From a virus, in the IMG/VR virus record IMGVR_UViG_3300044461_000032: a DNA stretch of 54,260 bases; one strand, 5' to 3'. A program made the translations under genes and the position numbers. The notes under the pieces are model-generated. The model made no database searches, was not told the origin of the DNA, and worked only from the letters and a program-made list of their open reading frames with translations. Shown one piece after another: positions 15,213 to 30,804 of this stretch (its first letter is position 1; each line of letters opens with the position of its first letter).

Positions 15213-15436
15213 CAACCCTCGCACCCGAGGTATAGTGGCGGTATCGGCTGCGCCCTAGGTAAGCGGCCGACGACGCCACTAGACGGCACTCGAAAAGGTC
15301 TAGATGTGGCTCCAGCCGGCCACGAGATAAACAGAGAACGACCTAGGCTCTCGACACGGGACTGCGCGACGGTGCACTCACCGATCACAGGGCCAACGAA
15401 TCGTGCCGGTTGGAACATCCACCCTCACATAGAGAA

Positions 15437-15472
15437 ACGCGCACCCGTCAGTTATCCCCAACGGATGCGCGT
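15437..15472 (-). terminator. Rho-independent terminator after the capsid gene
   Basis: Minus strand: a 12-bp stem ACGCGCATCCGT/ACGGGTGCGCGT (one G-U pair), a 12-nt loop, then TTCTCT. It starts 22 nt downstream of the capsid stop. Confidence 0.65.
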
Positions 15473-15493
15473 CCGAGTTACGCCGTCAGGCTC

Positions 15494-17458
15494 CTATGCG
15501 GTGCCGGCGGACCACTGCACGTCGTCCATCCAGGCCACGCCGGCATTCCGCCGCCGCGTCCAGTAGATGTAGCGCTCGCAGCGCAGCGCGACGCTGTTCG
15601 TCTGGAACATCGACACGACCACCGACCCAGTCGCCCCGGCGGGCGATCCGAGCGATCCGGCATCCATGACCGGCGCGTCGTCCATCTCGAGCGACGCCTC
15701 GCGGCTCAGGTCCATCGAGAACCCGCCATCGTCCGCCAGGAAGATTTCCGGCGCGGCGAGCAGGACGATCAGGTTGTTCGCAGGCGTGCCGAGAATCGCA
15801 TACTGCGACGTGACCACCGGCAACCCGTAGAACGTCCCGCCGTTCATGTTGATCGTCGGGAAGGCATAGGCCCCGAGCGACGTCCGCATGAGCGACAGCG
15901 CCAGCGCGACACTGTTCGGCATGATCCAGTGCGTCGGCATGATGTGCGCCGAGATGAAGGAGTTCATCAGGGCTTGCACGTCCACGTCGACCGCATCGAG
16001 CGTCACGCCCGAGGCGTTCAGATTCGCGATACCGTTCGTGATCGAGGCCGGGGAGACGCCCGCCGACGCCGTCTTCGCGGGATCGATGAAGTCGATGTCG
16101 AGCCGTTCCTGCAACGCCCGCACGAGCAAACTGCGGACGCGCGCTTCAGCCGAGGGACTGGAGAACCGCACCAGCTCGTCCGTCAGAACCGCGATGTTCG
16201 CGACCTTCGTGAACGGGATGGTCGTCTCGTTGTAGTCGCCCTTGGTGAGCGGCTTCGCCTTGCCCTGCCCGACCCAGTAGCCCGCCCCGCCCGACGTTTC
16301 GCCGCCGATGCGGGAATTGAAGGAGACGCGGGTCATGCCGTCGATACGGCCGATGATGGTCTGCGGTCGGAGATACTCGATGAACTCGCTCACGAGGTTC
16401 GTCGGGTAGACCAACGGCCCCGCCCACGTCGAGTCCAGCGTGGACCCGGCCGGCACAACTTCCTTGAGTAGCGCCTGAATGCGTGTCAGGCCGGGGAAGT
16501 GATGCTTCGCCAACTCCAGCGCCGAGATGCCCGTCCGGAGTGCCGCCGCGCGGCAAATCACATACTTGGACAGTTCGATGCCGGGCGGCAACTTCTGCTC
16601 CGGCGCCTCGCCCATGACCACATGCGATTGCGGCTGATGGGCCTCGCGCACGTCGCCCGTGGGGGCCTTCGCCACGACCGTGCGGGCCATCGCGGCCTGT
16701 GCGGCTTCCTGCGCCTTGAGGCTGTTCACCTTGCCCGCCAAGGACACGACCGTGCCGGACAGCGCGTTGCGCTCGCCGACTTCGTGCTCTTCGAGACTGC
16801 CATCGGCCGTCTCCCGCGTGTTCAGTTCTTCGAGTCGGGCGTGCTTCGTCTGCAGCTCGGCAATCGCCGAGGTAATCTGATCGCCAATGGGTGTCGCCAT
16901 GCGCGACTCCTTCTGTTGGGAGCCGCCCACATAGGAAGGCGAGGGTGTGTTGACGGTGCCCCCATAGGAGGGCTGAGTGGCGCGTTGCGCCAGGTCCAGT
17001 GTTTTAATCGTGTGAATCGAGGCCGTGGCATTCGCGGCAATCGTCACCGCGGAGAGTTCCATCCATTCCCATGTCAGGAACTTCTGGCCGCCCCACGGAT
17101 CCTTCGCGTTGAGCGGCTCCATCGTGAGGGCTTTGAACCCAATCGAGAGGCCGCGCACGAGGCCCGCCTTGATGAGCGTCCAGGCGCGGTCAATATCGGG
17201 GAGGCCGGTGTCCTTCGCAATCTGCGCGCGGATTTTGATGCCCGCCTTCGTAACCGTCGCCGCGAGCACATGCCCAATGGGAGAATCGGCGCGATGCTGC
17301 CACAAGAGCGGCATGGGCAATCGAAAGACGGCGCCGTCAGGCACGACTACGTCACCGGCCCTATCGACTTCGGGCGTGCTCGCGACGCCTTCGATGATGC
17401 GCTCGTGTTCGTCGATGGTCTTGACGTGATCGAGAAGGCTATACGCCCGCGTGAGCAT
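15494..17458 (-). CDS. Prohead protease (S78/U35) fused to an HK97-fold major capsid protein, 654 aa
   Basis: N-terminal ~150 aa: ..IEGVASTPEVDRAGDVV..LLWQHR..GLSIGF.. This is followed by a coiled-coil delta-like linker, then ..YLRPQTIIGR..VANIAVLTDELVRFS.. capsid motifs. Confidence 0.85.
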   Translation of the reverse strand: MLTRAYSLLDHVKTIDEHERIIEGVASTPEVDRAGDVVVPDGAVFRLPMPLLWQHRADSPIGHVLAATVTKAGIKIRAQIAKDTGLPDIDRAWTLIKAGLVRGLSIGFKALTMEPLNAKDPWGGQKFLTWEWMELSAVTIAANATASIHTIKTLDLAQRATQPSYGGTVNTPSPSYVGGSQQKESRMATPIGDQITSAIAELQTKHARLEELNTRETADGSLEEHEVGERNALSGTVVSLAGKVNSLKAQEAAQAAMARTVVAKAPTGDVREAHQPQSHVVMGEAPEQKLPPGIELSKYVICRAAALRTGISALELAKHHFPGLTRIQALLKEVVPAGSTLDSTWAGPLVYPTNLVSEFIEYLRPQTIIGRIDGMTRVSFNSRIGGETSGGAGYWVGQGKAKPLTKGDYNETTIPFTKVANIAVLTDELVRFSSPSAEARVRSLLVRALQERLDIDFIDPAKTASAGVSPASITNGIANLNASGVTLDAVDVDVQALMNSFISAHIMPTHWIMPNSVALALSLMRTSLGAYAFPTINMNGGTFYGLPVVTSQYAILGTPANNLIVLLAAPEIFLADDGGFSMDLSREASLEMDDAPVMDAGSLGSPAGATGSVVVSMFQTNSVALRCERYIYWTRRRNAGVAWMDDVQWSAGTA

Positions 17459-17496
17459 GGAGTGGCCCCAATGCTACGGAGGCGACACAGGGCCGT

Positions 17497-17682
17497 CTAT
17501 TTTGGGTTTCTTAAATCCTTGTCGAGCGCCTTCCGGATGATGTCTTGCACCGACACCCGCTGATACATGGCACGTTGAAACGCCCGGTCATAGAGGCTCT
17601 CCGACATGGTCAAATGCACGTCGGTGGAGGCCTCTTTCGGCGAGACGGACGGCCGGCCGCGGCGATTCACCTGTGGACTCAT
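17497..17682 (-). CDS. Small ribbon-helix-helix-like protein, 61 aa
   Basis: ATG at 17682 (ATGA overlap with the terminase stop). ..TDVHLTMSESLYDRAFQRA..VSVQDIIRKAL.. The remainder of track ORF 17497..18021 overlaps the terminase gene. Confidence 0.5.
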   Translation of the reverse strand: MSPQVNRRGRPSVSPKEASTDVHLTMSESLYDRAFQRAMYQRVSVQDIIRKALDKDLRNPK

Positions 17683-18338
17683 GCGCCCCCACCAAGCACG
17701 AACATCTGGTAAGCCGGCTCCACGGCGTGCCGGTTCCGCTCCATAAGATCGACCGCCATGACCAGCGCCGCCACCCCGTCGATGCGTTCCGTCGAGACCT
17801 TCTTCGAGATCTTTAGGTTGCCGGTCGGGTCGCTTTCGACTGAGACGTTCGAGATGTTCCACCGCAGAATCGGGTGGCCGTCGTGGCGCAGCGTGCGGGA
17901 CAGAATGGCCTTTTCTAAGGACTTCGTCGGGGCGGACAGGCTCGCGAAACCCTGCCGCATCGGGATACAGTCGAAGCCGTCCTGCTCCTGGAGCCGCGTC
18001 ACCAGATCCGTGGCGTTCCACGGGTCGAAGGCGATATGCCGCACGTCAAACTCCGCCGCCCAATCCTTCAACCGCTGGCGCACCACCTCGTAATCGACCG
18101 TCGGACCAGGCGTCACGACCAACTCACCCTCGCGCGCCCACTGGTCGTAGGGCACCCGATCCCGTCGCGACCGCTCGAGGATGGCGTCCTTCGGCACAAA
18201 GAACTGGGCCAGCACGTCAAAGCCGTCATCGTCAGGAAAGACCGCCACGGTCGCCGTCAAGTCCTTCGTGGAGCTCAGGTCCATCCCGACGTAACATCGC
18301 CGGCCGAGCAACCGCTGTCGATACTCCGCTCGGGTCAT
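17679..18338 (-). CDS. Large terminase, nuclease (C-terminal) domain encoded as a separate ORF, 219 aa
   Basis: ..GRRCYVGMDLSSTKDLTATVAVFP..IAFDPWN..ERIDGVAALVMA.. (RNase-H-like acidic residues). Its ATG at 18338 overlaps the TGA of the ATPase ORF. Confidence 0.8.
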   Translation of the reverse strand: MTRAEYRQRLLGRRCYVGMDLSSTKDLTATVAVFPDDDGFDVLAQFFVPKDAILERSRRDRVPYDQWAREGELVVTPGPTVDYEVVRQRLKDWAAEFDVRHIAFDPWNATDLVTRLQEQDGFDCIPMRQGFASLSAPTKSLEKAILSRTLRHDGHPILRWNISNVSVESDPTGNLKISKKVSTERIDGVAALVMAVDLMERNRHAVEPAYQMFVLGGGA

Positions 18339-19240
18339 GCCGCCTCCGTCACGCAACACGCATCCCAGGCCGGCATCGAAATCCACCGCGCCGCCTGCTC
18401 CGTCCACTGATTGAGATACAGCCGCCGGAACGTGTTTTCCTGCGCCGGGATTTCCTTGGCCCGCGCCGCGGCGATCCGCATGTCCTCCAGGCTCCGGAAG
18501 TCCCCGAGGGCCGGGTTCGCCTTCTTCCACACCTTTTCGTCCGTCCAATCGGCATCGATCGGCGCCTCATACAGAATCGGCAGGAAGGTCGGATCGAGGC
18601 TCGGGTTCTCTTCCACCTTCTTCGCGTGCGCGTAGAGTTCCCAGAGAATCGAATGCCGGTCATAGCCGGCCGTGGTGATGGCAATCATGTAAGGTTGCGC
18701 CCGCGCCCCTTGGCTGGTGGAGAGCACGTCCCACAGTTCCCGGTTCTGGGCTGCGTGGAGCTCGTCATAGATGACGACCGAGGCGTTAAAGCCGTGCTTG
18801 CTGTAGGCTTCGGCCGAAATGGCGCGGTAGAAGCTGCCGGACTTGCGATGCACGATCCGCTTCTGGGAATCGATGATCTCGCATTGGGCCAGGAGTTCAG
18901 GATCGTTCCGAATCATCTGCGCCGCGACGTTGAACACGAGCGCCGCCTGGTCCTTGTCCGAGGCCGCGCTGTAGACTTCCGCGCCAATCTCCCCGTCAAA
19001 GAGCAGGAAGTAGATTGCCAGCGCCGCGCACAGTTCAGACTTGCCGTTCTTCCGCGGCAACATCAGGAGGCAAGTCCGGTATTGTCGCAGGCCGTCGCGG
19101 CGGGTGGTAAACATCCGCTTGACGATACCCACCTGCCACGGGCGCCGCAGGTTGAACGGTTGCCCCGCAAACGGCCCCTTCGTGTGCGTGAGTTGGTTGA
19201 TGAGCCGCACCGCTCTAGCCGCCTGGGTTTCCGCCCTCAC
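18335..19240 (-). CDS. Large terminase, ATPase (N-terminal) domain ORF, 301 aa
   Basis: ..LLMLPRKNGKSEL.. (Walker A), ..VVIYDELH.. (Walker B), ..NQWTEQAARWISMPAWDAC.. GTG at 19240 overlaps the small-terminase TGA. Confidence 0.8.
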   Translation of the reverse strand: MRAETQAARAVRLINQLTHTKGPFAGQPFNLRRPWQVGIVKRMFTTRRDGLRQYRTCLLMLPRKNGKSELCAALAIYFLLFDGEIGAEVYSAASDKDQAALVFNVAAQMIRNDPELLAQCEIIDSQKRIVHRKSGSFYRAISAEAYSKHGFNASVVIYDELHAAQNRELWDVLSTSQGARAQPYMIAITTAGYDRHSILWELYAHAKKVEENPSLDPTFLPILYEAPIDADWTDEKVWKKANPALGDFRSLEDMRIAAARAKEIPAQENTFRRLYLNQWTEQAARWISMPAWDACCVTEAA

Positions 19241-19668
19241 TTCAGCGCCCCCGCCCACTTCGACACCGGCTCGTCCGGCTTCTTCGGGACCGAGATCCGT
19301 GCTCGGCTCACCGGCTCCAGCCCGAACAGGGCCACCCACGGCCTGAGCGCGTTGGCCGTGTCCCGTTCCAATCGGGCATCGAACGCCGGCCCGCCCTTCG
19401 CCACCATCGCCGCCGTAAACGTCGCCTGAAGTTCGCACATCGTGGCAAATGCCCGCACGTCGGCGGTGGTCAAGGTGCCCATGGCGAGGCAAATCGGGGC
19501 CAATTCGTCCCAGACCACGCCAGCGGAGTCGGAGAGGGCCGTCGGCTTGACCACCTCTCCAGACGGTGGACGTGGCTCATTTTCATTGAGCTTTTTACGA
19601 CTCGGGTTCCCGCGGAGCACCGTCAACGCGGACGGTTGCGGGCGCCTCCCGCTATTTTCAAACCCCAT
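19237..19668 (-). CDS. Small terminase subunit (P27 family), 143 aa
   Basis: ATG at 19668. MGFENSGRRPQPSALTVLRGNPSRKKLNENEPRP is a typical P27-family N-terminus. Confidence 0.8.
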   Translation of the reverse strand: MGFENSGRRPQPSALTVLRGNPSRKKLNENEPRPPSGEVVKPTALSDSAGVVWDELAPICLAMGTLTTADVRAFATMCELQATFTAAMVAKGGPAFDARLERDTANALRPWVALFGLEPVSRARISVPKKPDEPVSKWAGALK

Positions 19669-19727
19669 AAATCCCCTGAGACCGCCAATCTTTGCCCGAA
19701 AGTTGGCGCGAGCGTGCTCCAGCGGTC

Positions 19728-20141
19728 CTATTGGCCGCGCCGGAAAACATTGGACCATCCCCCCGCGTCGATCGTCGTCGTCTTCACGTTGTGACACCGC
19801 TCGCAGAGCGTCTGCAGGTTGCTCGCGTCGTCCGTGCCGCCTTGCGTCTTGGGCACAATGTGATCCGTGACCATGCGACCGCCGGGATAACGCAGGCCTG
19901 CTCTCACGCAGGCACTATGCTCACTCGACAATCGTCCGTCTGTGCGTTCCCCGCAGTAGGGATGCATCGCTTTCCATCGCTTGCTGAGCTTGTCCCATGC
20001 GTTGCCATACCCTCGCTCGTGGCGGCTGCCTCGCCTCAGGTCGGTCACCTGCCTCCGTTGCTTGGTGTGGGCAGGGCAGGGGCCCTTACTGCGTGCCGCA
20101 CAGCCAGGTTCAGGACAGAAGCCGACAGGGGCGCTTGGCAT
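19728..20141 (-). CDS. HNH endonuclease (terminase-associated), 137 aa
   Basis: ..DHIVPKTQGGTDDASNLQTLCERCHNVKT.. Lies directly upstream of the small terminase, as in HK97-like cos phages. Confidence 0.8.
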   Translation of the reverse strand: MPSAPVGFCPEPGCAARSKGPCPAHTKQRRQVTDLRRGSRHERGYGNAWDKLSKRWKAMHPYCGERTDGRLSSEHSACVRAGLRYPGGRMVTDHIVPKTQGGTDDASNLQTLCERCHNVKTTTIDAGGWSNVFRRGQ

Positions 20142-20349: not shown

Positions 20350-20649
20350 CTAGTTCACCACGCGCCAGACGTCAGGCGCTTTACTGTTCGGGAAGTACCC
20401 GACCAGGTTATCCCCGTCCGTGAGCGAGAACCGCACCTGATACACCCCGACGCTCAAGGCCTCGACCCCCAGGACGGCCACGGTGCCGGCGTCCTCATTG
20501 AGCCAATCGACGGTGACCGTGTCGATTTCGTCGCTCCCAAACAAGATACGTATCCCGACCGTAAACCCAGTCCCGTCAATCGGAACCCCGTCGTTTTCGA
20601 GCCGAAATTCCTGCGGTTCACTCGTGCCAACCGGAATCACATGGGTCAT
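20350..20649 (-). CDS. Small beta-rich (Ig-like?) protein, 99 aa
   Basis: ATG at 20649 (ATGA overlap). Confidence 0.55.
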   Translation of the reverse strand: MTHVIPVGTSEPQEFRLENDGVPIDGTGFTVGIRILFGSDEIDTVTVDWLNEDAGTVAVLGVEALSVGVYQVRFSLTDGDNLVGYFPNSKAPDVWRVVN

Positions 20650-21923
20650 GACGAACACTCCCGACGCACACGACGGACCGGCACGAGCGACACCACCCCA
20701 CGAACCGGCGTCAGGGCAATCACCGAATAAGTCGGGGTGAGGCTGACCACCGTGGTATCGCAGAGGTCCACTTCTGGCTGCAGACCGGCGAAGAAGGAGG
20801 TAGGGGCGCCCGTGATGAGATACGTGCCCGGGCTGAGCACGAACACGCGCGCCCCTTGTAAGGTCGCTGCCGCACCCGTAATGGCGTAGGCCCCAGGCGA
20901 CGCCACGAGCGCCCGATTGAGATGGAACGTGGCGTCTGCGCCGGTGAGGGCATAGGCCCCTGGATTCGCCGAGAGGAAGTGTTCGACTGCGAGGGTCGCC
21001 GAGGAACCTGTGATGACGTAGGTGCCCGAATCAGCCTGCAGAATGTGTGCGCTCAGGAGCGTGGCCGCGCTGCCCGTCAGGGCATAGGCGCCTGCCTCAG
21101 CATTCAGGGCAAAGGCGGCAAACGTCGTGAGCTCTGCATCGGCACCGGAGAGGACATACGCGCCTGGACTGGCCGAGAAGAGCAGCGCGCGCTGGAACGT
21201 GACATCCGCGCCCGTCAGCGCATAACTGCCAGGGTCGGCAATGAGCGCAAAGATGCCCGCGAGGTTGAGTTCCGCCGCGACGCCTGAGATGAGATAACTT
21301 CCAGGGCTGGCGTTCAGCGACCGAGCCGTCAGGAGGGTCGCGCTCGAGCCCGTCAGGCTGTAACTGCCAGGACTCGCGAGCAGGGACCGGACCAGGGAGA
21401 GCGTGGCCACGCTACCCGTGAGGTCGTAGGCGCCTGGACTCGCCGTGAGGGTTCGGGCGGCGAGCAGTGTAGCCGCTGAGCCTGTCAGCGCATAACTGCC
21501 TGGATCGGCCGAGACCGATCGCCCCGAGAGCAGGGACGCACTTGAGCCGGTGAGGGCATAACTCCCAGGACTCGCCGAAATGGTCCTGACGAGTTGAAGC
21601 GTCCCATTCGCCCCGGTGAGGGCGTAACTCCCTGAGGCGGCGTTGATGGTCCGAGCCGAGAGGAGCGTGGCGCTCGACCCGGTGACCGCGTAACTACCAG
21701 GGGAGGCCGTAATCGTATGGGCCGAGGTCAGAGTGGCACTGGCCCCAGTCAGGGCATACGCACCACTCGCCGCCAGGAGCGCATGGGCCGCGACCGTGAT
21801 GGCGGCAGCGCCCGTCACGGCATAACTCCCCGCATCGCAGCTCAAGCTATACGCGTTCGCGACCGTGGGCGGAAAGCTGGTCAGCCACGGTTTGAACGGT
21901 TGCGCGCGTCCGAGTCGTGCCAT
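20646..21923 (-). CDS. Tandem-repeat protein (16 x ~22 aa P-G-S-Y-A-L-T-G-S-x-A-T-L units), 425 aa
   Basis: Repeats are read directly from the translation. The N- and C-termini are unique. Confidence 0.75.
   Translation of the reverse strand: MARLGRAQPFKPWLTSFPPTVANAYSLSCDAGSYAVTGAAAITVAAHALLAASGAYALTGASATLTSAHTITASPGSYAVTGSSATLLSARTINAASGSYALTGANGTLQLVRTISASPGSYALTGSSASLLSGRSVSADPGSYALTGSAATLLAARTLTASPGAYDLTGSVATLSLVRSLLASPGSYSLTGSSATLLTARSLNASPGSYLISGVAAELNLAGIFALIADPGSYALTGADVTFQRALLFSASPGAYVLSGADAELTTFAAFALNAEAGAYALTGSAATLLSAHILQADSGTYVITGSSATLAVEHFLSANPGAYALTGADATFHLNRALVASPGAYAITGAAATLQGARVFVLSPGTYLITGAPTSFFAGLQPEVDLCDTTVVSLTPTYSVIALTPVRGVVSLVPVRRVRRECSS
20770..21840 (-). repeat. Diverged ~66-bp in-frame tandem repeat array (about 16 units) inside CDS 20646..21923
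   Basis: Periodic GSYALTG / GAYALTG units. The DNA copies are diverged, not identical. Confidence 0.7.
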
Positions 21924-21926
21924 CGA

Positions 21927-22130
21927 CTAGAGTCCTGCCCCCATCACCCCGAACCGACCCGGATCGGCCACGAGTTCATAGTGCCGGCGTCCGCAGACCC
22001 GACATTGCTTGACAATCATCCCGTGCCGATGCTCGGCCGAGTGGGTCGCCAAGGTCTCAAGGTTCCTGGGCTTGGCACAACACGGGCGCAAAATCCCCTT
22101 CACGACCGACCGCGGATCGATGAGGACCAT
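21927..22130 (-). CDS. Small Cys/His-rich protein, 67 aa
   Basis: ATG at 22130 overlaps the upstream TAA (TAATG). ..CCAKP..HSAEHRH..CRVCGRRH.. Confidence 0.45.
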   Translation of the reverse strand: MVLIDPRSVVKGILRPCCAKPRNLETLATHSAEHRHGMIVKQCRVCGRRHYELVADPGRFGVMGAGL

Positions 22131-22576
22131 TACGCCAGGGTGAAGATGGTCCCCGCGACGCCCACCGCCGCATTGTTGAACTTGACCGAGAACGACTCGC
22201 CATCTGCCAACGTCAACGGAGAGGCATAGTCCCACCACGCGATGAGCGGGTCCGCGTTCGGCGTCGTCGGCGTGTCGTCGTAGATGGCGACATACTGAAA
22301 CGGTCCCACGGGGCCGGCGCTCGCCGTGATCGTGAACGAGATGCCCGTCAGGGTGACCGTGCCACCCGTCCGCGTGGAGTCGTTCTGCGTATCCACGGGA
22401 GCGGTGTAGCCGTTCTGATTCGTGATCTCAGCCAGGTCCGCCTTGACCGTATCCCCGGAGGCCGAGGGCGTGGCGTTGCTGAGATAGGCGTTGATGACTT
22501 CGGCCGTCCCGAACAAGTCCATTTCCTTGTTCATGAGGCACTGCACGAAGGGCTCGAATTTGTTATACGTCGCCAC
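22130..22576 (-). CDS. Conserved phage protein of unknown function (virion-type), 148 aa
   Basis: MATYNKFEPFVQCLMNKEMDL..ADLAEITNQNGY..PLIAWWDY.. resembles a recurrent phage family whose function I cannot name. Confidence 0.5.
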   Translation of the reverse strand: MATYNKFEPFVQCLMNKEMDLFGTAEVINAYLSNATPSASGDTVKADLAEITNQNGYTAPVDTQNDSTRTGGTVTLTGISFTITASAGPVGPFQYVAIYDDTPTTPNADPLIAWWDYASPLTLADGESFSVKFNNAAVGVAGTIFTLA

Positions 22577-22577
22577 G

Positions 22578-23099
22578 TTAAACCTCCACCGTCATGTAAC
22601 AGACCGCGTTGACCGCCACGGATGTGTGGGTACGAATGCGCCCGAAGAGCCCCAGGTTGATGACCGGCTCCCGCCCGAGGGGGAATTGCTTCACGAACTC
22701 ATATCCGTTGGAACTGGGCACCGTCACGGTGATCTGGTCAAAGAGCCGCACGGCCGTGATACTACCCTCACCGGCACTGGTGTAGCCGGTCGAGGTTGTG
22801 CCAACTTGGATGAGGTTCGTCGACGGGTCGCCGCCCGCGACCGCATTCGCGTCCAGTTTGTTCAGGCCTGCCGCCACATGCGCCGTCACCGTGGCCGCCA
22901 CGTCCGTCTCGAGCAGCTCGGCCACGAACAGGCAGGCCGAGGCGGGCGCGTCGCACTTGATGCCCCACTCGACAATCTTCGCGAGCACGGTCGCGGAGGC
23001 TTTCACTTGCAGGAGCGTCTTGATGGACGTGCCCGTCGTCACCGCGACAAACTTCGCCGTGGTCGGGGTGGCACCGTTGAAAATCTGATACAACGCCAT
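22578..23099 (-). CDS. Hypothetical beta-rich structural-type protein, 173 aa
   Basis: Clean ORF whose stop lies 1 nt before the next start. Confidence 0.5.
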   Translation of the reverse strand: MALYQIFNGATPTTAKFVAVTTGTSIKTLLQVKASATVLAKIVEWGIKCDAPASACLFVAELLETDVAATVTAHVAAGLNKLDANAVAGGDPSTNLIQVGTTSTGYTSAGEGSITAVRLFDQITVTVPSSNGYEFVKQFPLGREPVINLGLFGRIRTHTSVAVNAVCYMTVEV

Positions 23100-23108
23100 A
23101 GGACTCCT

Positions 23109-24431
23109 TTAATACAGTGAGGCGCGCTTGACGGATTGATTTAGGAAGAGCGGCTTCGCTCGCCGAGTCTCGTAGCCTACCGCGACATACCACATAAACG
23201 CCCCCGCAGGGTCCGCGTCGTCCATGATGAGCGTGATCGGATCGCCCCAGGTATTGATGTCACCAAGCCCTTCAATGGCATCGGTGTCAGGGTCCGCGTT
23301 GAGATACACCGCGTCCGTGCGCAGGCCGGTCTGCACGAACATATTGGTGTTGCCGCTCCGACTGGAGGCTTGCTGACAGGTGCGATTCGAGGCGCTGGTC
23401 GCCGCGCCAACACTCCATTCATCGTGTGCGGACGGCGTGGAACCTGAGACGATGTGCGCCTTGCACGCCGACACGAACAGAGCCGCCAACGGATAGAATC
23501 CGAGCGCATCAGTACCAAACGCCGTGCTCGTATCGGTCTGCGTCGTCAGGCTCCCGATCGCCCATTGCCCACCGCCAATCGCGAGCCAGTGCATCCGCAT
23601 GGCGTTGTTACGAGCCGTCCAGTCGATATTGAGGTTGGTCGCATCGGCAAAGCCCGGGGGATCATTCGAGATGAGACACAAGTTTGCGGGCGCTGTCGTC
23701 GGGTTCGACAGGTGCAGGGCGAAGATTTCATCTCGCCGACAATACGTCCCCGTCGCCCCGCTCGCCGCCGCGTTGTTGCTGCCGCCGCTCCAGACCGCTT
23801 GCCGTGGGACGGCCCCGCCACCACCGGGCGGCACCGCGGCCATCGCCGCGCCGAAGGAGACCGAGGAATCCACCTTGGTGCTCGGTGCATCGGCCGCGCA
23901 CGCGCCCATGAAAAAGGCGACCGTGGGGGTCACGCCGAGCCCGTGCGCGACGGTCGTCGTCCCCGTGGCGGCCGACGTGTGGGTGCCGGTCGCCGCAGAA
24001 ATCTCGCTCCCGCCCACCGCGAGATAGCTCACCCGCAGATCCGTCGGGAAGGCGTCGAGAATCTCCAGCGTGAAACTGCCGTTGCCGACCGATTGCACGT
24101 CCGCCCATCCCGCACCCGTGCCGAACCCATTCGTGGTATCCAACATCGCGATGCAGGCATCGTCCCGATGGCCGCTGTCCGTATCCGCCGACCCACCGCC
24201 GTCGATGTCGAGCGCGCAGACCACGCGGAACGCCGACGCCCCCACCGCCCACCCATGTCCGCGTAGATGGCTCGCGCTCCCAAACGCGTTCGTGCTTTCC
24301 GTGCGACCCGACCACCAGAACAGGATCACCTTCGGCACTTCGGACTCGGGCCACAGACTGGACACGGTCACCGTCGTGGCGGCTGCCCCTGTCCCGATAT
24401 TGAACGCACCCACCGCGGCCAGGACGGACAT
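23109..24431 (-). CDS. Hypothetical Gly/Ala/Thr-rich surface-type protein, 440 aa
   Basis: ATG at 24431 preceded by GGGGAG. The N-terminal extension in the track overlaps the upstream gene. Confidence 0.5.
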   Translation of the reverse strand: MSVLAAVGAFNIGTGAAATTVTVSSLWPESEVPKVILFWWSGRTESTNAFGSASHLRGHGWAVGASAFRVVCALDIDGGGSADTDSGHRDDACIAMLDTTNGFGTGAGWADVQSVGNGSFTLEILDAFPTDLRVSYLAVGGSEISAATGTHTSAATGTTTVAHGLGVTPTVAFFMGACAADAPSTKVDSSVSFGAAMAAVPPGGGGAVPRQAVWSGGSNNAAASGATGTYCRRDEIFALHLSNPTTAPANLCLISNDPPGFADATNLNIDWTARNNAMRMHWLAIGGGQWAIGSLTTQTDTSTAFGTDALGFYPLAALFVSACKAHIVSGSTPSAHDEWSVGAATSASNRTCQQASSRSGNTNMFVQTGLRTDAVYLNADPDTDAIEGLGDINTWGDPITLIMDDADPAGAFMWYVAVGYETRRAKPLFLNQSVKRASLY

Positions 24432-24450
24432 CAGCAGGACTCCCCACACA

Positions 24451-25107
24451 TCAGACCCCCAACCGGGCGATGAGCGCGGCCTCAGTGTGGAGTGGGTTGA
24501 TGCGGTCTTCCGCCAGCAGGAGAATCTGGTGGAGCACATCCGCCGTCATCATGCCGATGCGCCTGAGCGCCAGCGACGCGCCATAGAACACCGGGTCATC
24601 CGCCGCGGTGGTGGACTTCACCCGGACGCGCAGCGTGCGCAGACCAGCAGGTAGGGGACTCACCGACTGGGACACCGAGAGCGTCTTGTCGCCAGCGGCC
24701 CCGGCATCGTCAATCACCGCAAGCTGCGCCGCGTTCGTCTGGTCCCACAACTGCCAACTCTGCGTCCCCGTCCCGACCTTGTTCACGAAGACGCCGAACT
24801 CGAACCCGCTGATGCCGAAGGTCTCGATCCGACAGACGCCCAAGCCTTTGCTCGCCGGGGTCGTGTCATAGGCCGCGCCCACATTCGTCAGCGTCAGAAA
24901 CCCGCCGAGGCTGATCGAGTCCAGCGGGGAGACGACCCTGGCGATGAGCGCCGCGGCCTCGGTCTGCTCACCGGCCGAGAGGGTAAAAGCATCGATGACT
25001 TGCTGCGTCGTCATCTGGCCGCGTTCCAGTTCCCCGAGCGCCGCCATGAAGGCGTGGACGTGGATCTTGGGTTCCGTCGTGCCGATGAGACGGGAGTAGA
25101 GGCTCAC
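24451..25107 (-). CDS. Hypothetical protein, 218 aa
   Basis: ATGA overlap with the upstream gene. Confidence 0.5.
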   Translation of the reverse strand: MSLYSRLIGTTEPKIHVHAFMAALGELERGQMTTQQVIDAFTLSAGEQTEAAALIARVVSPLDSISLGGFLTLTNVGAAYDTTPASKGLGVCRIETFGISGFEFGVFVNKVGTGTQSWQLWDQTNAAQLAVIDDAGAAGDKTLSVSQSVSPLPAGLRTLRVRVKSTTAADDPVFYGASLALRRIGMMTADVLHQILLLAEDRINPLHTEAALIARLGV

Positions 25108-26435
25108 GACAGACCCGGCTGCACGAGTAGGGGCGCAATCGCCTCAGGCGTCAGGCTCCCGTTCGGCCCAGCGAGCACCACCACGTTTCGGTTCCACGAT
25201 TGCATAAGGCCATTCGTGGCCGTGTCCTGCGAACTGTCGTATTCCAGTCGAAAGACGGTGGTCGCAGGGGGCGTGAACAGCGGCACACGGTTGTAGAGTT
25301 GGACCGGCGCACGGGCGGCATCGGCGATCCACATACTCAGCAGACAGGGCGTCTCGCCTTGGCCGAACCCTTCCACCAGGAGCCAGGTGCGCGTGATCGT
25401 ATTCACGGCCACATAGAATTGGGCCGCACGCGGTGACAAAATCTGCTGCCCGAATTGATCGTTGAACGACTGCCCGGGCACGAGATACATGCCGTTGTAG
25501 ACCGATAAGAAAAACTCCGCGATCCCCTGGCCCGCATCGAACGCCTGTTTGTAGTCCGTCTTCCACTGTAACCAGAACGGCCACCCCACCACGGAATCCA
25601 CGCGCCACGTCTTATGGCGGAACAAGTCCCCGTCCTTGGTGTAGGCAAACCCCGCATCGAAACTGAAGTCCCAGGTCAAGAGACTGTCCCCGGTGGTCAA
25701 CTCGAACGTCAGGTGCTTCTGTCCGCTGTCTGTGCTGCCGGTCTGGGGATTGATCTGTGCCACGGCCGCATCCACGCCAGCGTCGTAGAAGATGGGCACC
25801 TTTGTTGCGCTCACGCCTCCGGACTGGTAACTGTCGATCTCGGCCTGACTCCGTAACGGGTAGGCGTCCCGGCAATCAGCGCGGGCAGTCAGCGCCTCGT
25901 AGTAGGGGTACGCCCCAGGCTGCGGCGGCACATACACACACGACCGTGTCTCAATACGCGTCCCACTCGTCGGCCCGCACGCCTGCCCACCGTTCGCCGG
26001 TGGCGTGAGAATCTCTCGTGTCCAGGTCACCACGCAGGTCTGCGTGCCGTCCGGCTGACAGGGCCCCCACTCACCAACCGTGTCCACGGGATCGCCGAGC
26101 ACGCAATCAACGGGCACGGGTGAGGTCTCAGCCGGTTGCACGTCGACCGTCACTGTGGCCGTGGCCTTCCCTCCTTTGTGGTCGATGACTTCATAAACGA
26201 TGTCATAGACCCCAACCGCATCGTAGCCGCGGGTGTAGGACGCCTTCCCCGGCTTGCCGGGCGCCGTGCTCTTGTCGATGCCCTGGCCCCAGTAGAAGAT
26301 GTTCTTAATTTTGTTCGTGGGACCGTCCACATCCGTCGTGCCCGAGGCATCGACGATGACTTCTTGACCGACGAGAATCGGCAATGGCGTCACGAGTTGG
26401 AGATCGGCGATCGGCACGCGGTTCGGTGGGGACAT
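25104..26435 (-). CDS. PKD-like domain, then a Cys-rich TSP1-like module, then an unknown ~270-aa C-terminal domain, 443 aa
   Basis: ..VIVDASGTTDVDG..YDIVYEVIDHKGGKATATVTVDV.., ..WGPCQPDGTQTCVVTWTREILTPPANGGQACGPTSGTRIETRSC.. The C-terminal domain is paralogous to that of 26836..28764. Confidence 0.6.
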   Translation of the reverse strand: MSPPNRVPIADLQLVTPLPILVGQEVIVDASGTTDVDGPTNKIKNIFYWGQGIDKSTAPGKPGKASYTRGYDAVGVYDIVYEVIDHKGGKATATVTVDVQPAETSPVPVDCVLGDPVDTVGEWGPCQPDGTQTCVVTWTREILTPPANGGQACGPTSGTRIETRSCVYVPPQPGAYPYYEALTARADCRDAYPLRSQAEIDSYQSGGVSATKVPIFYDAGVDAAVAQINPQTGSTDSGQKHLTFELTTGDSLLTWDFSFDAGFAYTKDGDLFRHKTWRVDSVVGWPFWLQWKTDYKQAFDAGQGIAEFFLSVYNGMYLVPGQSFNDQFGQQILSPRAAQFYVAVNTITRTWLLVEGFGQGETPCLLSMWIADAARAPVQLYNRVPLFTPPATTVFRLEYDSSQDTATNGLMQSWNRNVVVLAGPNGSLTPEAIAPLLVQPGLS

Positions 26436-26461
26436 GGTTTACGGCTTTCGCAAGGAGGGGC

Positions 26462-26839
26462 TCAGGTCGCCGCCCCCTCGTAATCCGGCGCGATGGTGAG
26501 CGTGACCAGGAACTTCCCGGTGTTCACGAGACTGTCCCAGGTGTAGGTGAACAGGACGTGGCGCCGATACTGCGAGGGCGGACGGCGCGTGGTGAGCGGC
26601 ACCACCGTGGTATCGTCCGCGTTCAACGTGACGGCCACGACCCCCTCGTCTGAGCAGTACACCAAGACATCCACGTCGTCGCGGTCGTTCACGATCGTCG
26701 TCGTGGCCGGATACACCGACGCATTACGGTCATAGACCGACATCGTCAACGTTTCCGGCTTGAATCCCAGGTCCACCGTCACATCTAAGGACGTGCCACT
26801 GAGAAAGGCCTTCCGAACTAAGACGGTATTCTTCGTCAC
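26462..26839 (-). CDS. Hypothetical beta-rich protein, 125 aa
   Basis: GTG at 26839 (GTGA overlap). Confidence 0.45.
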   Translation of the reverse strand: MTKNTVLVRKAFLSGTSLDVTVDLGFKPETLTMSVYDRNASVYPATTTIVNDRDDVDVLVYCSDEGVVAVTLNADDTTVVPLTTRRPPSQYRRHVLFTYTWDSLVNTGKFLVTLTIAPDYEGAAT

Positions 26840-28764
26840 GCGGATGGCTTCTGGAAGATGTCCGCGTCCGCTTCCGGGTCCACCGTGGGGAGCGCGTAGT
26901 TGTGCAATACGACCACATTCCGCCCATACCCGATGAGCGGCCCTGTCTGGCACGGCGGCGGGTTACACGACGTGTTGAACTCGAAATCGAACGAGCCGAC
27001 CGTGCTATTGCTTTGCGTGCCGCCCATCTGCCAGGGCACCCGGAAGAGGGTCCGAGCGGCCTCCCGGCCTTCGTCGGCCACCCACAGCGAGAGCATGTGC
27101 CACGTCCCGGTCAGGTCCGCGGAGTTCCCGGTCGGCCCCTCCACCGCCAGCGCCTTCCACTCGGTAAACTCCGCCGCCGGGCGATTGAGGCGAATCTCGA
27201 TCCACCGCCGCGTCCACCGACTGTGCAGGATCGGATACGACTCTCGCGGCGCGGCGCCCTCGCCGGTCGGCTCAAGCGGGTCATTGGAACTACAGCCCGG
27301 CGGCAGCGGTAACCCGTTGCGGTCGAGGGTCGAAGTGATTTTCGAAATCTCCGGGTCGGCGTCCGCACGGAAGAAGTGATCCTTCACCGTCCACCAACGC
27401 CCGCTCACCCCTTGCCGAACCTGGAATGTCTTGTAATTCGCGAGCTTCGCCAGGGGGTCGCCGGCGCGAGTATAGAGACGAAATTCCTCCCCGTACCAGA
27501 AATCCCAACAGATCAGGATGGTGCCGGTGTTGATCCCGATAGGCATCTTAAGTTGTTGGTTCCCGGGAATCGAATCACTCCCGAACCCGAGGCGGTCATC
27601 GACGGGCTTATAGAACTTCGCGCCATCTTGTGCTTGGGGATAACTGTCCGTGCTTGGACTGAACGTAAAATACGACGACGGCGGGGCGTTCACGAGGTCG
27701 TCTAGTTCTGACTGGCTCCGAAGGCCCCAACTCGCATGGTGCTCTGGAAGGGCCTGCAACGACTCAAAATAGGCGTGGGCCCCGCCGACTGGGGCTGGCC
27801 GCGCCAGCACCGCAAATGTCACACTCCTACTCGTGGCGACGCTGCCATCCGACACGGTGAGGGTCAACGTCCGCGAGGCATGCGCCGTGCCGTAGGTGTG
27901 GGTGTAGGTGGCGGGCGGTGATCCCGCAATCGTCCCGGACGACGTCCCGTCCCCGTGTGTAATGCTGTAACTCCCAATCACCCCATCCGCGTCGGACGCC
28001 GTCAACGCGAACGTAAAATCTCCCACGTAGAAGCCGGACACCCGCGTGACCGAACAGATCGGGGCTTGGTTCGCGACGACCGACGACTGAATCGTGACCG
28101 TTCTCGAGGCTGACCCGCTGAGGGCTGGCGAGCCGACATCCGTGACCGTCAGCGTGGCTGTATACGTGCCTGCGGTGGCATAGGTGTGCGTCAGGGTGTC
28201 GGGGAGTAGAACGTCGGTGTCCGGCTCCGTGTCGTCGCCCCAGTCCATGGTGTAGCCCGCGATGTTTGCGTCCGTATCGGCGGTGGAGAATATATAGGGC
28301 TGACCCGCGAACTGCCCGGACGCATACGTCAGGACGACCACGGGGGACACGTTCTCGGGCTCAGGGTCACCCGGTGGATCGTCCGGGTCGGGCAGGGGCG
28401 ACGGATCGGGCTCGACGACTAGCGTCACGGTGGCCGTGGCTTCATCTTCCGCCCCGACGCTGTCTCGGACAGTCAGGGTCAGCGTGTAGGTGCCCGTCGC
28501 CGCGTAGAGATGCCCATAAGTGTCCTGGGTGGGGACGTACGTGGTCGTGTCGCCGTCGCCCCAGTCGATCGTGCCTGAGACGGTGCCGCCTTCAGGATCC
28601 CGCGTCCCGTCCGTCGAGACGATGACGTCCTCGGATTCATACCGAGCGGACACCACCTCGAGCACGGCGATCGGCGGCTGGTTGGGCCTGGCGGCGTTCG
28701 GGTTGCGCGGCTTCGCGATGCGCACTTTCGCGCCCCCCGCGGCACGAATGCTAGCTTGCGCCAT
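26836..28764 (-). CDS. Three PKD-like domains plus the shared unknown C-terminal domain, 642 aa
   Basis: ..DWGDGDTTTY..TYTLTLTVRD.., ..DWGDDTEPD..TYTATLTVTD.., ..THGDGTSSG..RTLTLTVSD.. C-terminal ..LRSQSELD..ICWDF..LSLWVADE..RNVVVL.. Confidence 0.65.
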   Translation of the reverse strand: MAQASIRAAGGAKVRIAKPRNPNAARPNQPPIAVLEVVSARYESEDVIVSTDGTRDPEGGTVSGTIDWGDGDTTTYVPTQDTYGHLYAATGTYTLTLTVRDSVGAEDEATATVTLVVEPDPSPLPDPDDPPGDPEPENVSPVVVLTYASGQFAGQPYIFSTADTDANIAGYTMDWGDDTEPDTDVLLPDTLTHTYATAGTYTATLTVTDVGSPALSGSASRTVTIQSSVVANQAPICSVTRVSGFYVGDFTFALTASDADGVIGSYSITHGDGTSSGTIAGSPPATYTHTYGTAHASRTLTLTVSDGSVATSRSVTFAVLARPAPVGGAHAYFESLQALPEHHASWGLRSQSELDDLVNAPPSSYFTFSPSTDSYPQAQDGAKFYKPVDDRLGFGSDSIPGNQQLKMPIGINTGTILICWDFWYGEEFRLYTRAGDPLAKLANYKTFQVRQGVSGRWWTVKDHFFRADADPEISKITSTLDRNGLPLPPGCSSNDPLEPTGEGAAPRESYPILHSRWTRRWIEIRLNRPAAEFTEWKALAVEGPTGNSADLTGTWHMLSLWVADEGREAARTLFRVPWQMGGTQSNSTVGSFDFEFNTSCNPPPCQTGPLIGYGRNVVVLHNYALPTVDPEADADIFQKPSA

Positions 28765-30697
28765 GGTCGTATCTCGCCCGCGCGGGCAAAGTGTGGAGTA
28801 GTGTGGAGCCGAGTGGATCGACCCACGGCCACGCGAGGTCGCCGAAGAAGGCGGGCTTCGCCGTGAGATAGAGCGAATCAGGAATGGGCTGTGCTGGTCG
28901 ATCCCACGCGACCGCGTTCGTCAGGTAGTCGAAGTTCCCATCGCGGAGGACGGTCGACAACACCTTCGGGTCCGCGGCCTGCCCCCACTGCTGAGGCGCA
29001 TACCCGAGTTTCCAGACAGACTCAGGGGCACTCCAGTCATAGGACCACCCGACCATATGGCCCTCTTGACCTAGCACGTTGCCAATAAACGAGTGCCACC
29101 ATGACCCGAACATCAGCCCCGCGCAGCGCCCATTGTGTTGCCCGGGATAGTCCAGCCGAATGCCCACGAGATGATTGCGAAAGATGGTCATCGCAAACGA
29201 GCTGCCGTGTGTGTCGTCCGAGTCGTAATTGTGGGACTGGTTCCCCTCGAACAAGATGTGATGCGGGCCGACCATGTGCGAGCCGTTGATCCCGACTTCC
29301 ACCCATTCCAAATAGTTCCCGATAAGTGTGTTGTCCATGTAGTTGTAGCCGACGACAGACCCCGCGCCGGCCGACTTGGCCACCATCGCCTTGTTCATGC
29401 CCAGGACGATGTTGTTCTCGAGCAGCACCTCGGACGAGCCCCCTGACAGACCCAGGCCATAGCCCCCGCCGCCGGGGTAGGGCCAGACGCAATCGTGGAT
29501 GTAGGAGTCGCGGACTTCACAGCGGAAGGCCCCGTTGAGGCTCACCGCTTCGCCGAGCCAGGCGGCGCTTTCGACGTGCTTCACCCAACACGACGCCGCC
29601 GCATTGAACCGGATATTGCCGTCGGAGCCCCCGGAGACGGTGAGATCCTCCAGTCCCGCACCTTGGACATGCGGCTCCATCCAGCGCGTGAGCTGCGCGG
29701 ACTTCGTGACGGGATAGTCGGTGTGGAGTGGCGTCGTGAACCGGACGAGATGCCCGTCGACGGACGCAATTTCTTTAATCTCGTTCACTGGCCGACCTGA
29801 CCGGCTGAACCACGTCAGGGAATCCGGGAAGGGATCGTCCCCAGGTTCAGGCGGGTTGTGCTTCGCGAAGACGACCTGATTGCTCGCCCAGATGGTAACG
29901 TCAGTGGCCGCGCCATCCCGCGGCGGGAGCGCACACCACTCGGACGCAGCATAGTCGTCCCGGTCCAGCAACACGAACTGTCCCGCGGCAAGGCCGGTCG
30001 CATCCTCGACATCGACAAACATCGCCCCTTTCACGCCGTCTGCGTAGATGGACGCCGTGGACAACTGCGGCCACCGACTCGGCCCGAGAATGACGATGGG
30101 CTCGGCCTCTTCCGGCTGATACGAGCCGGGTTTCGCCCCGTTCGTCTTGACGAGGAACGTCTTCCCTGGACCCTGCCCGCGCAGCGTCACGGCCTTGTGC
30201 AGCAGGATGTGGTCATTGCACAGGAATGTCCCCGCCGAGAGCTTGACGGTCTGCTCGAGCGGGCAGGCCGCAATCGCCGCCGCAATCGCCGCCGAGGCCT
30301 CTTCGGTGCCGTCCGCATATTCGGAGGCGTTGATCGTGACGAAGATGGTTTCGCGTGCCGGGATGCCGGTTCTCACTCCCGGCGCCCAGATCGTACGGCA
30401 CTCGACCGGCACGAGGCCGGTGTCAGGGGGCTCAATAGGGGGTTCAATGGGCGGCTCAATCGGCGGCGCTGGCGCCACCGTCACCATCGCCGTCACCGGC
30501 TGGCAGGTATTGGACTTGCCCTTTTTGTTGGTGACCGTGACCGTGCAATCATACGTGCCCGCCGCGTGGTAGGCGTGTGTCGCGGTGGGCTGATTCGACG
30601 ACTCGGACGTCCAGTCCCCGAAGTCGTAGACATAGCGCCGAATCCCGCCGCCACCCGCCGCATCCGTCGACCCAGAGGCATCGACGACGAACGGCAC
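28751..30697 (-). CDS. PKD-like domain plus a right-handed beta-helix (pectate-lyase-fold-like) protein, 648 aa. The start is uncertain
   Basis: GTG at 30697. ..FVVDASGSTD..YDFGDW..TYDCTVTVTNKKG.., a (PIEP)3 linker, then ..NGAFRCEVRDSYIHD..LLENNIVLGMN.. Confidence 0.6.
   Translation of the reverse strand: MPFVVDASGSTDAAGGGGIRRYVYDFGDWTSESSNQPTATHAYHAAGTYDCTVTVTNKKGKSNTCQPVTAMVTVAPAPPIEPPIEPPIEPPDTGLVPVECRTIWAPGVRTGIPARETIFVTINASEYADGTEEASAAIAAAIAACPLEQTVKLSAGTFLCNDHILLHKAVTLRGQGPGKTFLVKTNGAKPGSYQPEEAEPIVILGPSRWPQLSTASIYADGVKGAMFVDVEDATGLAAGQFVLLDRDDYAASEWCALPPRDGAATDVTIWASNQVVFAKHNPPEPGDDPFPDSLTWFSRSGRPVNEIKEIASVDGHLVRFTTPLHTDYPVTKSAQLTRWMEPHVQGAGLEDLTVSGGSDGNIRFNAAASCWVKHVESAAWLGEAVSLNGAFRCEVRDSYIHDCVWPYPGGGGYGLGLSGGSSEVLLENNIVLGMNKAMVAKSAGAGSVVGYNYMDNTLIGNYLEWVEVGINGSHMVGPHHILFEGNQSHNYDSDDTHGSSFAMTIFRNHLVGIRLDYPGQHNGRCAGLMFGSWWHSFIGNVLGQEGHMVGWSYDWSAPESVWKLGYAPQQWGQAADPKVLSTVLRDGNFDYLTNAVAWDRPAQPIPDSLYLTAKPAFFGDLAWPWVDPLGSTLLHTLPARARYDHGAS
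30427..30464 (-). repeat. 3 x 12-bp tandem repeat encoding the PIEPPIEPPIEP linker
   Basis: ctcaat/ttcaat/ctcaat cores recur with a 12-bp period. Confidence 0.8.
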
Positions 30698-30804
30698 ACC
30701 GGCAACAATCGGCGTAGGAAGGACCAGACGAGCGGTGAGGACGGGTTTGGCCAGGGGACTTGGCCGCTAGAATGCCCGTGCCACTCGGCGATGTCAATGC
30801 CTAA

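Follow-up and report, generated by a model that had tools for sequence, protein, structure and literature searches.

That phages carry accessory carbohydrate-binding fibres and depolymerases is already known as a general idea. The described systems closest to the locus analyzed here are the depolymerase tailspikes and fibres (P22, K1F, CBA120 and the Klebsiella sets), the head decoration proteins and head fibres (T4 Hoc, T5 pb10, epsilon15 gp10, SU10 gp10 and phi29 gp8.5, whose gene follows the capsid gene), the collar-whisker assemblies (T4 Wac, Bas63 and GP4 gp77/rope/Fiber-1) and, in terms of gene order, the right end of HK97-type genomes (lysis genes, HNH gp74, cos, terminase), where lysis genes stand just before HNH and the presumed cos site. 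Here, we describe a block of 12 tightly packed minus-strand genes (30697-20201; A to K plus a 45-amino-acid (aa) open reading frame (ORF); Table 1) in a soil phage (IMG/VR virus record IMGVR_UViG_3300044461_000032), the whole 54,260-nucleotide (nt) stretch of which is referred to as the window. The block lies between a coiled-coil gene on one side and the genes for an HNH endonuclease and the small and large terminase subunits (TerS, TerL) on the other. It forms a second, separate set of carbohydrate-directed, surface-type genes, as an earlier interpretation made from the letters alone (the sequence-only reading) had proposed. We suggest that it may encode late-expressed depolymerases of extracellular polysaccharide (EPS) together with head- or neck-borne glycan-binding fibres or decorations that aid reversible adsorption, a reading that we favour while giving it slightly less than an even chance.

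The block resembles each of these systems and also departs from each. Like depolymerase tailspikes, it combines putative bodies of beta-helix or other carbohydrate-active type, several different candidate enzymes in tandem, modular exchange between phages and a presumed action on capsule or EPS. Unlike them, its genes lie outside the tail module, its putative enzymes are led by PKD domains and have no N-terminal particle-binding domain, and the C-terminal domain of B and D falls in no described depolymerase family, its relatives being secreted proteins of bacterial EPS loci only. As at the HK97-type right end, HNH stands directly upstream of TerS/TerL and the block lies just before it; here, however, surface-type genes fill the region over ~10 kb, and neither an endolysin nor a spanin was recognised. 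With the head decoration proteins, the block shares the post-capsid, pre-adaptor slot in which G, H and J-like genes and a phrog_1084 gene in the position of K lie in relatives, small Ig-like or jelly-roll domains, dispensability and what is thought to be a weak adherence to glycans. It differs from them in that its genes stand upstream of the terminase in the window and in that G reaches 99% identity in a pair of phages with only 36% identity between their capsid proteins, and no sequence or specific fold likeness to known decoration proteins (gpD/beta-tulip, Hoc, Soc, Dec, epsilon15 gp10, phi29 gp8.5) was found for G or H. The gene of SU10 gp10 lies between the capsid and adaptor genes, and its product is predicted to be decoration-like and was not seen in the map (PMC9509320). 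The fibres of Bas63 and GP4 are borne by an Ig-like collar located at the connector, and a role in transient surface anchoring has been proposed for them (PMC12609058). The collar-whisker systems are like the block in having accessory, connector-anchored fibres encoded with head or neck genes and a set of small Ig-like collar, linker and fibres, and one F-family protein is fused to Gp77. However, the block proteins, including K, C, E and I, gave no match to Gp77 (PF23148).

In the reading we favour, the block would be a dispensable, horizontally shuffled late-gene array for handling host EPS. A, B and D would be enzymes in which N-terminal PKD/Ig-type domains precede a catalytic-looking body, namely a pectate-lyase-like beta-helix in A and, in B and D, a domain apparently taken by phages from secreted proteins of bacterial sulfated-EPS loci. 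The solenoid rod of J, the triple-repeat module of F and the jelly roll of G would form head- or neck-borne fibres or decorations that bind glycans, with H, I and K as adaptors or assembly factors. The block would open the late operon and be expressed together with the head genes, its products would give the particle weak, reversible EPS binding and local EPS digestion, and committed receptor binding would be left to the separately encoded tail-tip set. Gene content, domain matches, mosaicism, neighbourhood patterns and dispensability are observed here; that the proteins have enzymatic activity, attach to the virion, reside on the head or neck and are expressed late is inferred. The link to sugars is provided by the EPS loci that harbor homologues of the B/D domain, the confirmed PKD domains, the beta-helix hints in A and J, a lectin domain in a J-like protein of one HK97-like siphovirus (L179) and the pectate-lyase genes found between H and J-like genes. 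These carbohydrate-directed domains, together with the fibre-like repeats, the conservation of G across host phyla and the dispensability of the block, fit a head or neck slot.

Comparison with other phages resolves the block into a mosaic of three horizontally exchangeable cassettes, A/B/D, E-F-G and H-I-J-K, rather than the single unit that the sequence-only reading had described. In L085, a 47-kb viral contig, E, F and G are 88%, 70% and 99% identical at the aa level to those of the window and likewise lie upstream of HNH-TerS-TerL, whereas TerL, the capsid protein and the portal of the two phages are 32%, 36% and 45% identical. Nucleotide homology begins precisely at the E start codon and ends at the G stop codon, with unrelated sequence on both sides, indicating that E-F-G is a discrete, recently exchanged unit; within it, the middle portion of F is divergent. 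The N-terminal ~60-110 aa of E recur beside F-like genes in other phages, and such fragments lie beside an F-like gene in L101/L112 and beside H in L143. Gene order differs in L110 (PKD-X ... H-I-G-J-C-like-HNH, X being the C-terminal domain of B and D), where a 35% identical homologue of C occupies the position of K between J and HNH, and C itself has no family match in Pfam, PHROGs or NCBIfam. Another contig, L022, carries a 4-kb mini-block that includes a tail-fibre-family protein (phrog_863/6202, E=1.7e-37). Four close relatives by TerL (L071, L077, L082 and L059) have no block homologues from ~10 kb upstream to at most ~10 kb downstream of TerL, indicating that the block is accessory and dispensable. 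The comparison of relatives recommended by the sequence-only reading thus found no block homologues in the stretches around TerL of close relatives, with homologues elsewhere standing beside the capsid gene or before the terminase. The location of the block is not peculiar to this genome; the slot directly upstream of HNH/terminase recurs in several phage lineages (L085, L099, L100, L101/L112, L110, L123 and L190).

The placement of the E-F-G and H-I-J-K products at the head or neck is suggested by homologous genes that lie between capsid and head-tail adaptor genes. We surveyed the neighbourhoods of 80 viral loci carrying a homologue of H, whose family comprises ~2,000 clusters, and found a J-like gene within ~3.5 kb of H in ~60 of them. 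Among the roughly 20 loci with a capsid gene recognisable on the same strand, this gene lies 0.9-8 kb upstream of H in 16 (mostly 0.9-4 kb) and downstream in 4. The HK97-like siphoviruses L179 and L153 show the order TerL - portal - protease - capsid gene - 146 - 62 - H - ... - J-like - K-like - head-tail adaptor Ad1 - tail terminator - major tail protein, and the complete podovirus MW202742 has the capsid gene followed by four small genes, H, I, a pectate lyase, further genes, a J-like gene and the tail hub. G lies between the capsid and neck genes in siphovirus L191, whose head is Mu-like, and it follows the capsid gene in the SU10-like podoviruses L103 and L106; G adjoins H in the window, in L110 (H-I-G-J) and in L103, where the neighbour is a distant H homologue (hhalign probability 94%). 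The genes in the position of K in L085 (x122) and L179 (101 aa, immediately before Ad1) both belong to phrog_1084, and K itself, which has the look of a small beta-sandwich by eye, matched no family in Pfam, PHROGs or NCBIfam. The cassette is almost never found beside genes for the tape-measure protein (TMP), Dit or Tal in this sample, the exceptions being EBPR siphovirus 2 and L187.

This neighbourhood pattern bears on whether the block instead encodes an extra receptor-binding set on the tail tip or baseplate, in which F, J, A, B and D would serve as side fibres or tailspikes, assisted by H and I as chaperones or adaptors, and would widen the host range. Tailspikes are classically beta-helix enzymes, Sipho_Gp37 and Beta_helix domains occur in fusion with F-family proteins, the F-like module ends an 886-aa protein encoded by the last sizeable gene of a run in MW202725, the L022 mini-block holds its tail-fibre-family protein, and the H homologue of EBPR siphovirus 2 comes after a 'tail protein' feature. 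However, relatives of G, H, J and the K-slot genes (phrog_1084) neighbour the capsid gene and the head-tail adaptor rather than TMP, Dit or Tal, which weakens a tail-mounted role; a fibre and a protein that is beta-helix-like by eye already stand beside the tail-tip genes of the window; and the conservation of G across phyla is far higher than would be expected of a receptor-binding protein. No N-terminal anchors were detected in A, B or D either, and no block protein combines an N-terminal anchor with a gene in the tail-tip module, as a tailspike or tail fibre would. We therefore regard a tail-borne set as quite unlikely, and of the roles listed in the sequence-only reading, capsid or neck decoration fibres and polysaccharide-active enzymes now lead, while the alternative receptor-binding set has lost ground.

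The family of G comprises more than 4,800 clusters, all 169-173 aa in length, and ~65% identity is still seen at rank 120. Cultured strains with G-family genes in prophage-like regions are Streptomyces sp. PmtG, Streptomyces sp. man185, Nocardia australiensis DSM 111727, Catellatospora methionotrophica and Catelliglobosispora koreensis. Members from prophage-like regions or genome-binned phage contigs of Proteobacteria, Planctomycetes, Acidobacteria, Gemmatimonadetes, the Candidate Phyla Radiation and Actinomycetes show that identities of 35-65% are kept among phages of many phyla, and this conservation fits binding to a conserved part of the virion, not to a host receptor. A Streptomyces homologue of G gave no match among cultured phages. 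The AlphaFold2 (AF2) model of G (mean predicted local distance difference test score (pLDDT) 78) is a jelly roll, for which Foldseek returned generic jelly rolls (PDB TM-score at most 0.4) and uncharacterised phage proteins. H was modelled with a pLDDT of 90.7, and its best PDB Foldseek hit (E=0.45) amounts to no structural match. The fold search proposed in the sequence-only reading therefore yielded a generic jelly roll for G and no PDB match for H. Neither family matches Pfam, PHROGs, NCBIfam or PDB entries; the only hits from profile searches of PDB with G and H were antibody light chains and a spurious PsbX match, and single-sequence PDB searches with the B C-terminal domain, F, H, J, E and K gave nothing meaningful. 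Two candidate relatives of H were rejected: the 147-aa 'Structural protein' PDB 44nx_B matched at E=2 and no more strongly with a broader profile, and the 142-aa phrog_240 'head protein' of L085 and L022 showed no relation by hhalign and is a positional analogue at most.

The F family comprises 854 representative clusters at 50% identity. By eye, the consensus of the family shows three repeats (GFxP...F..S...DGFTL). The module, ~420 aa long, either stands alone or is joined to one or the other end of larger proteins, the longest of which has 3215 aa; Sipho_Gp37, the GP4 fiber-tail adaptor Gp77, Beta_helix, Big_5 and TIG are among its fusion partners, and the Gp77 domain was found in 1 of 37 long F-family proteins. 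In podovirus MW202725, the F-like module forms the C-terminal part of the 886-aa protein (7295-9955), whose gene is the last sizeable one of a same-strand run. J was described in the sequence-only reading as a 16-unit tandem-repeat protein, and repeat parsing bears this out, with exactly 16 units of period 22 aa (ASPGSYALTGSSATLLSARTLx), two of them 24 aa long. It is probably a regular beta-solenoid rod, and a weak match to the Cthe_2159 beta-helix family (20.3 of 25.8 bits) was obtained. J-like repeats occur in proteins of 196-1431 aa encoded beside H, one of which (L179) carries a ConA-like lectin domain, and a gene for a pectate lyase or a Pel9A-type beta-helix stands between H-I and the J-like gene in several phages. 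Among deposited phage records, J matches only uncultured Manatee Spring podoviruses. A variation in repeat number, suspected from 254-aa calls on some contigs, was rejected because the contig DNA is 100% identical and only the gene calls differ. A small I-like gene follows H in L099, L100, L101, L110 and others (36-78% identity), and I, with its paired cysteines, is possibly a zinc ribbon.

The A/B/D cassette carries the case for enzymes. B contains three PKD stretches, as the sequence-only reading had stated (PKD_4, 83.5 bits, E=1.1e-23, above the Pfam cut-off). For A, the same reading had proposed a PKD domain plus a beta-helix: the former holds (PKD_4, 45.2 bits against a cut-off of 27, E=9.6e-12; one copy covering profile positions 22-83 only), but the latter stays below threshold (Pect-lyase_RHGA_epim, 22.7 of 27 bits; Beta_helix, 16.6 of 25.9 bits). 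A and B are thus assigned to the PKD families (PF18911/PF00801), the only described grouping in which block proteins could be firmly placed, in agreement with PDB matches to collagenase PKD domains; the PDB sequence matches of A are confined to its PKD domain. A also shows a weak match to the BT3328 hyaluronate endo-lyase family (E=4.5e-4) and a single marginal PHROG match (E=0.004). No relatives of A were found in cultured phages (tblastn), and no close ones in IMG/VR or GTDB genomes. The in-frame codons just upstream of A (30698-30770), RPSPLAKPVLTARLVLPTPIVAG, resemble the absent first PKD strand and include no ATG, GTG or TTG, which suggests either a non-canonical start codon or a genuinely truncated PKD.

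B and D are paralogous by BLASTP, both in the C-terminal domain (E=5e-12) and in the N-terminal Ig/PKD part (37% identity). Thrombospondin type-1 (TSP1) repeats are typical of eukaryotic adhesins. The proposal that D pairs a PKD domain with a TSP1-like one survives in a weakened form, as its TSP1_spondin (PF19028) copy is degenerate and sub-threshold (18.6 bits against a cut-off of 41), whereas the orthologous PKD-X proteins of L085 (4232-5821, 41.9 bits) and L110 (6285-7862, 43.1 bits) pass the cut-off. The X domain (~300 aa) has 23 homologue clusters in the database search, mostly proteins of ~350 aa, and those bacterial homologues whose sequences were inspected have N-terminal signal peptides; P0263 is a secreted bacterial homologue of the short form found in D. 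The two homologues whose neighbourhoods were looked up both lie in bacterial polysaccharide loci with glycosyltransferases and sulfotransferases; a UDP-glucose dehydrogenase, a Wzx-type flippase, a heparinase II/III-like protein and a sulfatase occur across the two, and one holds three tandem X-domain copies. The domain is rare, with 2 loci in reference genomes, and rare also in IMG/VR; it matches nothing in Pfam, NCBIfam or PDB and no known lyase or hydrolase family. A weak Pfam 'Baseplate_J' match on one homologue was judged spurious because that homologue sits in a bacterial EPS locus. We infer that X is a domain of secreted EPS-acting proteins, captured by phages and joined to PKD/TSP1 modules. 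The domain may represent a new EPS-acting family, linked to polysaccharide by its association with EPS loci alone, and for B and D the adhesin or depolymerase label of the sequence-only reading accordingly leans on this association.

The same proteins raise the prospect that A, B and D are soluble depolymerases released at lysis, clearing EPS or biofilm for the progeny, with H, I, K, C and E as chaperones or modifiers. A, B and D look like secreted bacterial enzymes (PKD plus catalytic body) and are anchorless; apart from the marginal match of A, no virion-anchor or tail-fibre domains were found in them in Pfam, PHROGs or NCBIfam. The block also occupies the usual location of lysis genes and ends with the 45-aa ORF, whose translation MLSLSLILFLAALVVVLMASVNKAPLWVGVLLHILGTLTSAGWPR has two hydrophobic segments and which is possibly a small, holin-like membrane protein, compatible with a release at lysis. 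No endolysin was recognised among the window ORFs scanned or near the 45-aa ORF, a spanin was likewise unrecognised, and the H-like ORF9 of phage Pam1 is missing from the list of proteins detected in its virion by mass spectrometry (MS). Because ORF9 went undetected and A, B and D are anchorless, a role as soluble enzymes and assembly factors stays credible. Against this, G, H and J-like genes lie within structural operons, from capsid to adaptor, in many phages, J and F have fibre-like repeat architectures with fusions to virion domains, and family searches found no lysis enzyme in the block, so that we rate this scenario as unlikely.

A further alternative is that the block is a virion-modification or non-structural accessory set, serving capsid or tail glycosylation or superinfection exclusion and having no direct role in adsorption. 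One H homologue is labelled 'general glycosylation pathway protein' in its deposited record, a label that is unverified. In L190, a methyltransferase-like gene and two glycosyltransferases (TOD1_MUCI70 and GT2) lie inside the H-I block (9461-11456), the window has a phrog_4603 glycosyltransferase-like gene in its head/neck module that is kept in relatives, and the H-like gene of Pam1 stands two genes upstream of an acetyltransferase gene. The phrog_4603 gene and the L190 transferases may point to virion glycosylation. However, no transferase domain occurs in the block of the window, and architectures built on PKD, beta-helix, lectin and repeat elements suggest that the proteins bind or degrade their targets instead of modifying them. 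We consider such a set very improbable.

Several observations weigh against EPS depolymerases combined with head- or neck-borne fibres. The strongest contrary datum is that Pam1 ORF9 (gp9), a 30%-identical homologue of H, was not detected in the virion by MS, although its neighbours were (PMC9382816 Table S2). None of the block proteins has a homologue, studied experimentally or matched by structure, that would locate it in a virion, and Foldseek gave generic jelly rolls for G and nothing for H. A, B and D have no recognisable N-terminal anchor and resemble bacterial secreted enzymes minus the signal peptide; the beta-helix of A is sub-threshold and the activity of the X domain is putative. 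In addition, the H homologue of EBPR siphovirus 2 follows a feature annotated as 'similar to tail protein', a TMP-like gene follows H in L187, and the cassette of the window precedes HNH/TerS/TerL, with the capsid gene starting ~3 kb further downstream.

A broader proposal would be that G to K, with E and F optional, form an undescribed head/neck apparatus of glycan-binding fibres with exchangeable EPS depolymerases, spread among phages of many host phyla and encoded after the capsid gene or before the terminase, and that the X domain is a new family of sulfated-EPS enzymes common to bacterial EPS loci and phages; taken as a whole, we consider this rather doubtful. What is new here is that G, H, J and F represent large unannotated families with a conserved gene slot, that the modelled fold of H has no PDB match, that the B/D domain is shared with bacterial sulfated-EPS loci, and that a recently exchanged E-F-G unit joins otherwise distant phages. 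The block exposes an annotation blind spot, as the G, H and F families have no counterpart in Pfam, PHROG, NCBIfam or PDB, and the distant H homologue Pam1 gp9 is their only member from a cultured phage, while the slot of G and H beside the capsid gene is held in siphoviruses and podoviruses of many phyla. If the products are head or neck glycan-binding fibres, they would constitute a common, unstudied layer of adsorption in soil and sediment phage communities. The B/D domain offers a testable candidate enzyme family for sulfated bacterial exopolysaccharides and would illustrate how phages take up a gene from an EPS locus of the host; even if the proteins act as soluble enzymes, the block would be a useful source of biofilm-matrix enzymes. 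Interest would be high if virion location and enzymatic activity were demonstrated.

The window is a circular assembly with an exact 127-nt direct repeat at 1-127 and 54134-54260, indicating a circularly closed, complete genome of ~54.1 kb; one tail-tip ORF crosses the assembly junction. It has ~63% G+C, nearly all genes are on the minus strand, and the base composition of the block is like that of the remainder of the genome. Within the block, gaps and overlaps between genes measure 0-26 nt, and 107 nt lie upstream of A. Scans of the block for promoter- and terminator-like sites gave none exceeding chance, and a megablast search of the block against cultured phages found no match. The coupled minus-strand arrangement between the coiled-coil gene and HNH/terminase, as first read from the sequence, is borne out for 12 genes by the ORF map and by independent calls, identical gene models having been called on 100%-identical contigs from ENA, JGI and Logan in many samples. 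That the block precedes the packaging genes and is set apart from the tail module was likewise read correctly, as ~17 kb of recombination and replication genes separate it from the tail-tip genes. Of the tail-tip set posited elsewhere in the genome, a fibre and presumed tail-tip genes were seen, including a 991-aa protein with a ConA-like domain, a 358-aa fibre with H..GG.DEI repeats and a 478-aa protein that is beta-helix-like by eye and matched no family, and family matches are few throughout.

Table 1. Coordinates of the block genes and of other features of the window.
Feature	Length	Position	Strand	Remarks
Small genes, Erf, exonuclease, HNH, helicase-methyltransferase, coiled-coil gene		47700-30805		Between tail-tip set and block
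A	648 aa	30697-28751	-	N-terminally truncated PKD, PIEPP linker, probable right-handed beta-helix (lyase/hydrolase-like)
B	642 aa	28764-26836	-	Three PKD and C-terminal ~310-aa X domain
C	125 aa	26839-26462	-	ORF map and gene calls agree
D	443 aa	26435-25104	-	Ig/PKD-like domain, degenerate TSP1-like Cys motif, short X-domain form
E	218 aa	25107-24451	-	First gene of E-F-G
F	440 aa	24431-23109	-	Fibre-type module, three internal ~130-aa repeats
G	173 aa	23099-22578	-	Jelly-roll protein, strong ribosome-binding site
H	148 aa	22576-22130	-	Partner of J-like repeat and beta-helix proteins
I	67 aa	22130-21927	-	Cys-rich (PCC...CRVCG); start overlaps H stop (TAATG)
J	425 aa	21923-20646	-	Conserved MARLGR..PF N-terminus, 16 repeats, short C-terminal tail
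K	99 aa	20649-20350	-	Last conserved member of H-I-J-K
Small ORF with two transmembrane segments	45 aa	20338-20201	-	Between K and HNH; called as gene on independent contigs
HNH endonuclease		19728-20141	-	Pfam HNH/HNH_5 on identical contig; downstream edge of block, before TerS
TerS, then TerL (ATPase ORF and nuclease ORF)		TerL 17679-19492	-	Directly downstream of HNH
Protease-capsid fusion	654 aa	17458-15494	-	After TerL
Portal		14681-13278	-	Two small genes separate it from the protease-capsid fusion
Glycosyltransferase-like gene		11267-12148	-	phrog_4603 'alpha-2,3-sialyltransferase', E=3e-35; head/neck module
Neck, major tail protein and TMP genes		6761-1827	-	
Presumed tail-tip genes		54250-47720, spanning junction	-	Few family matches

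Phages usually have the portal gene before the protease and capsid genes. The order TerS - TerL - protease::capsid - two small genes - portal in the window (13278-19797, minus strand) is unusual and is kept in L005, L007, L071 and L085. TerL itself is split, the stop codon of the ATPase ORF (TGA, 18337-18335) overlapping the start codon of the nuclease ORF (ATG, 18338-18336) in the sequence ATGA. Contig L005 (97% identical) and independent assemblies (307- and 219-aa calls) have this split too, and the TerL linker is read through as a single continuous ORF in L022, L007 and L071. The early region encodes, on the minus strand, a 761-aa helicase fused to a DNA methyltransferase (34014-36299) and a second HNH protein (37216-37812). 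The 358-aa tail-fibre-like protein (49123-50199, minus strand) contains repeated H..GG.DEI..GL.G.LA motifs, and a 46-aa stretch of it is 62-63% identical to hypothetical proteins of haloarchaeal Hardycor1 and HFTV1.

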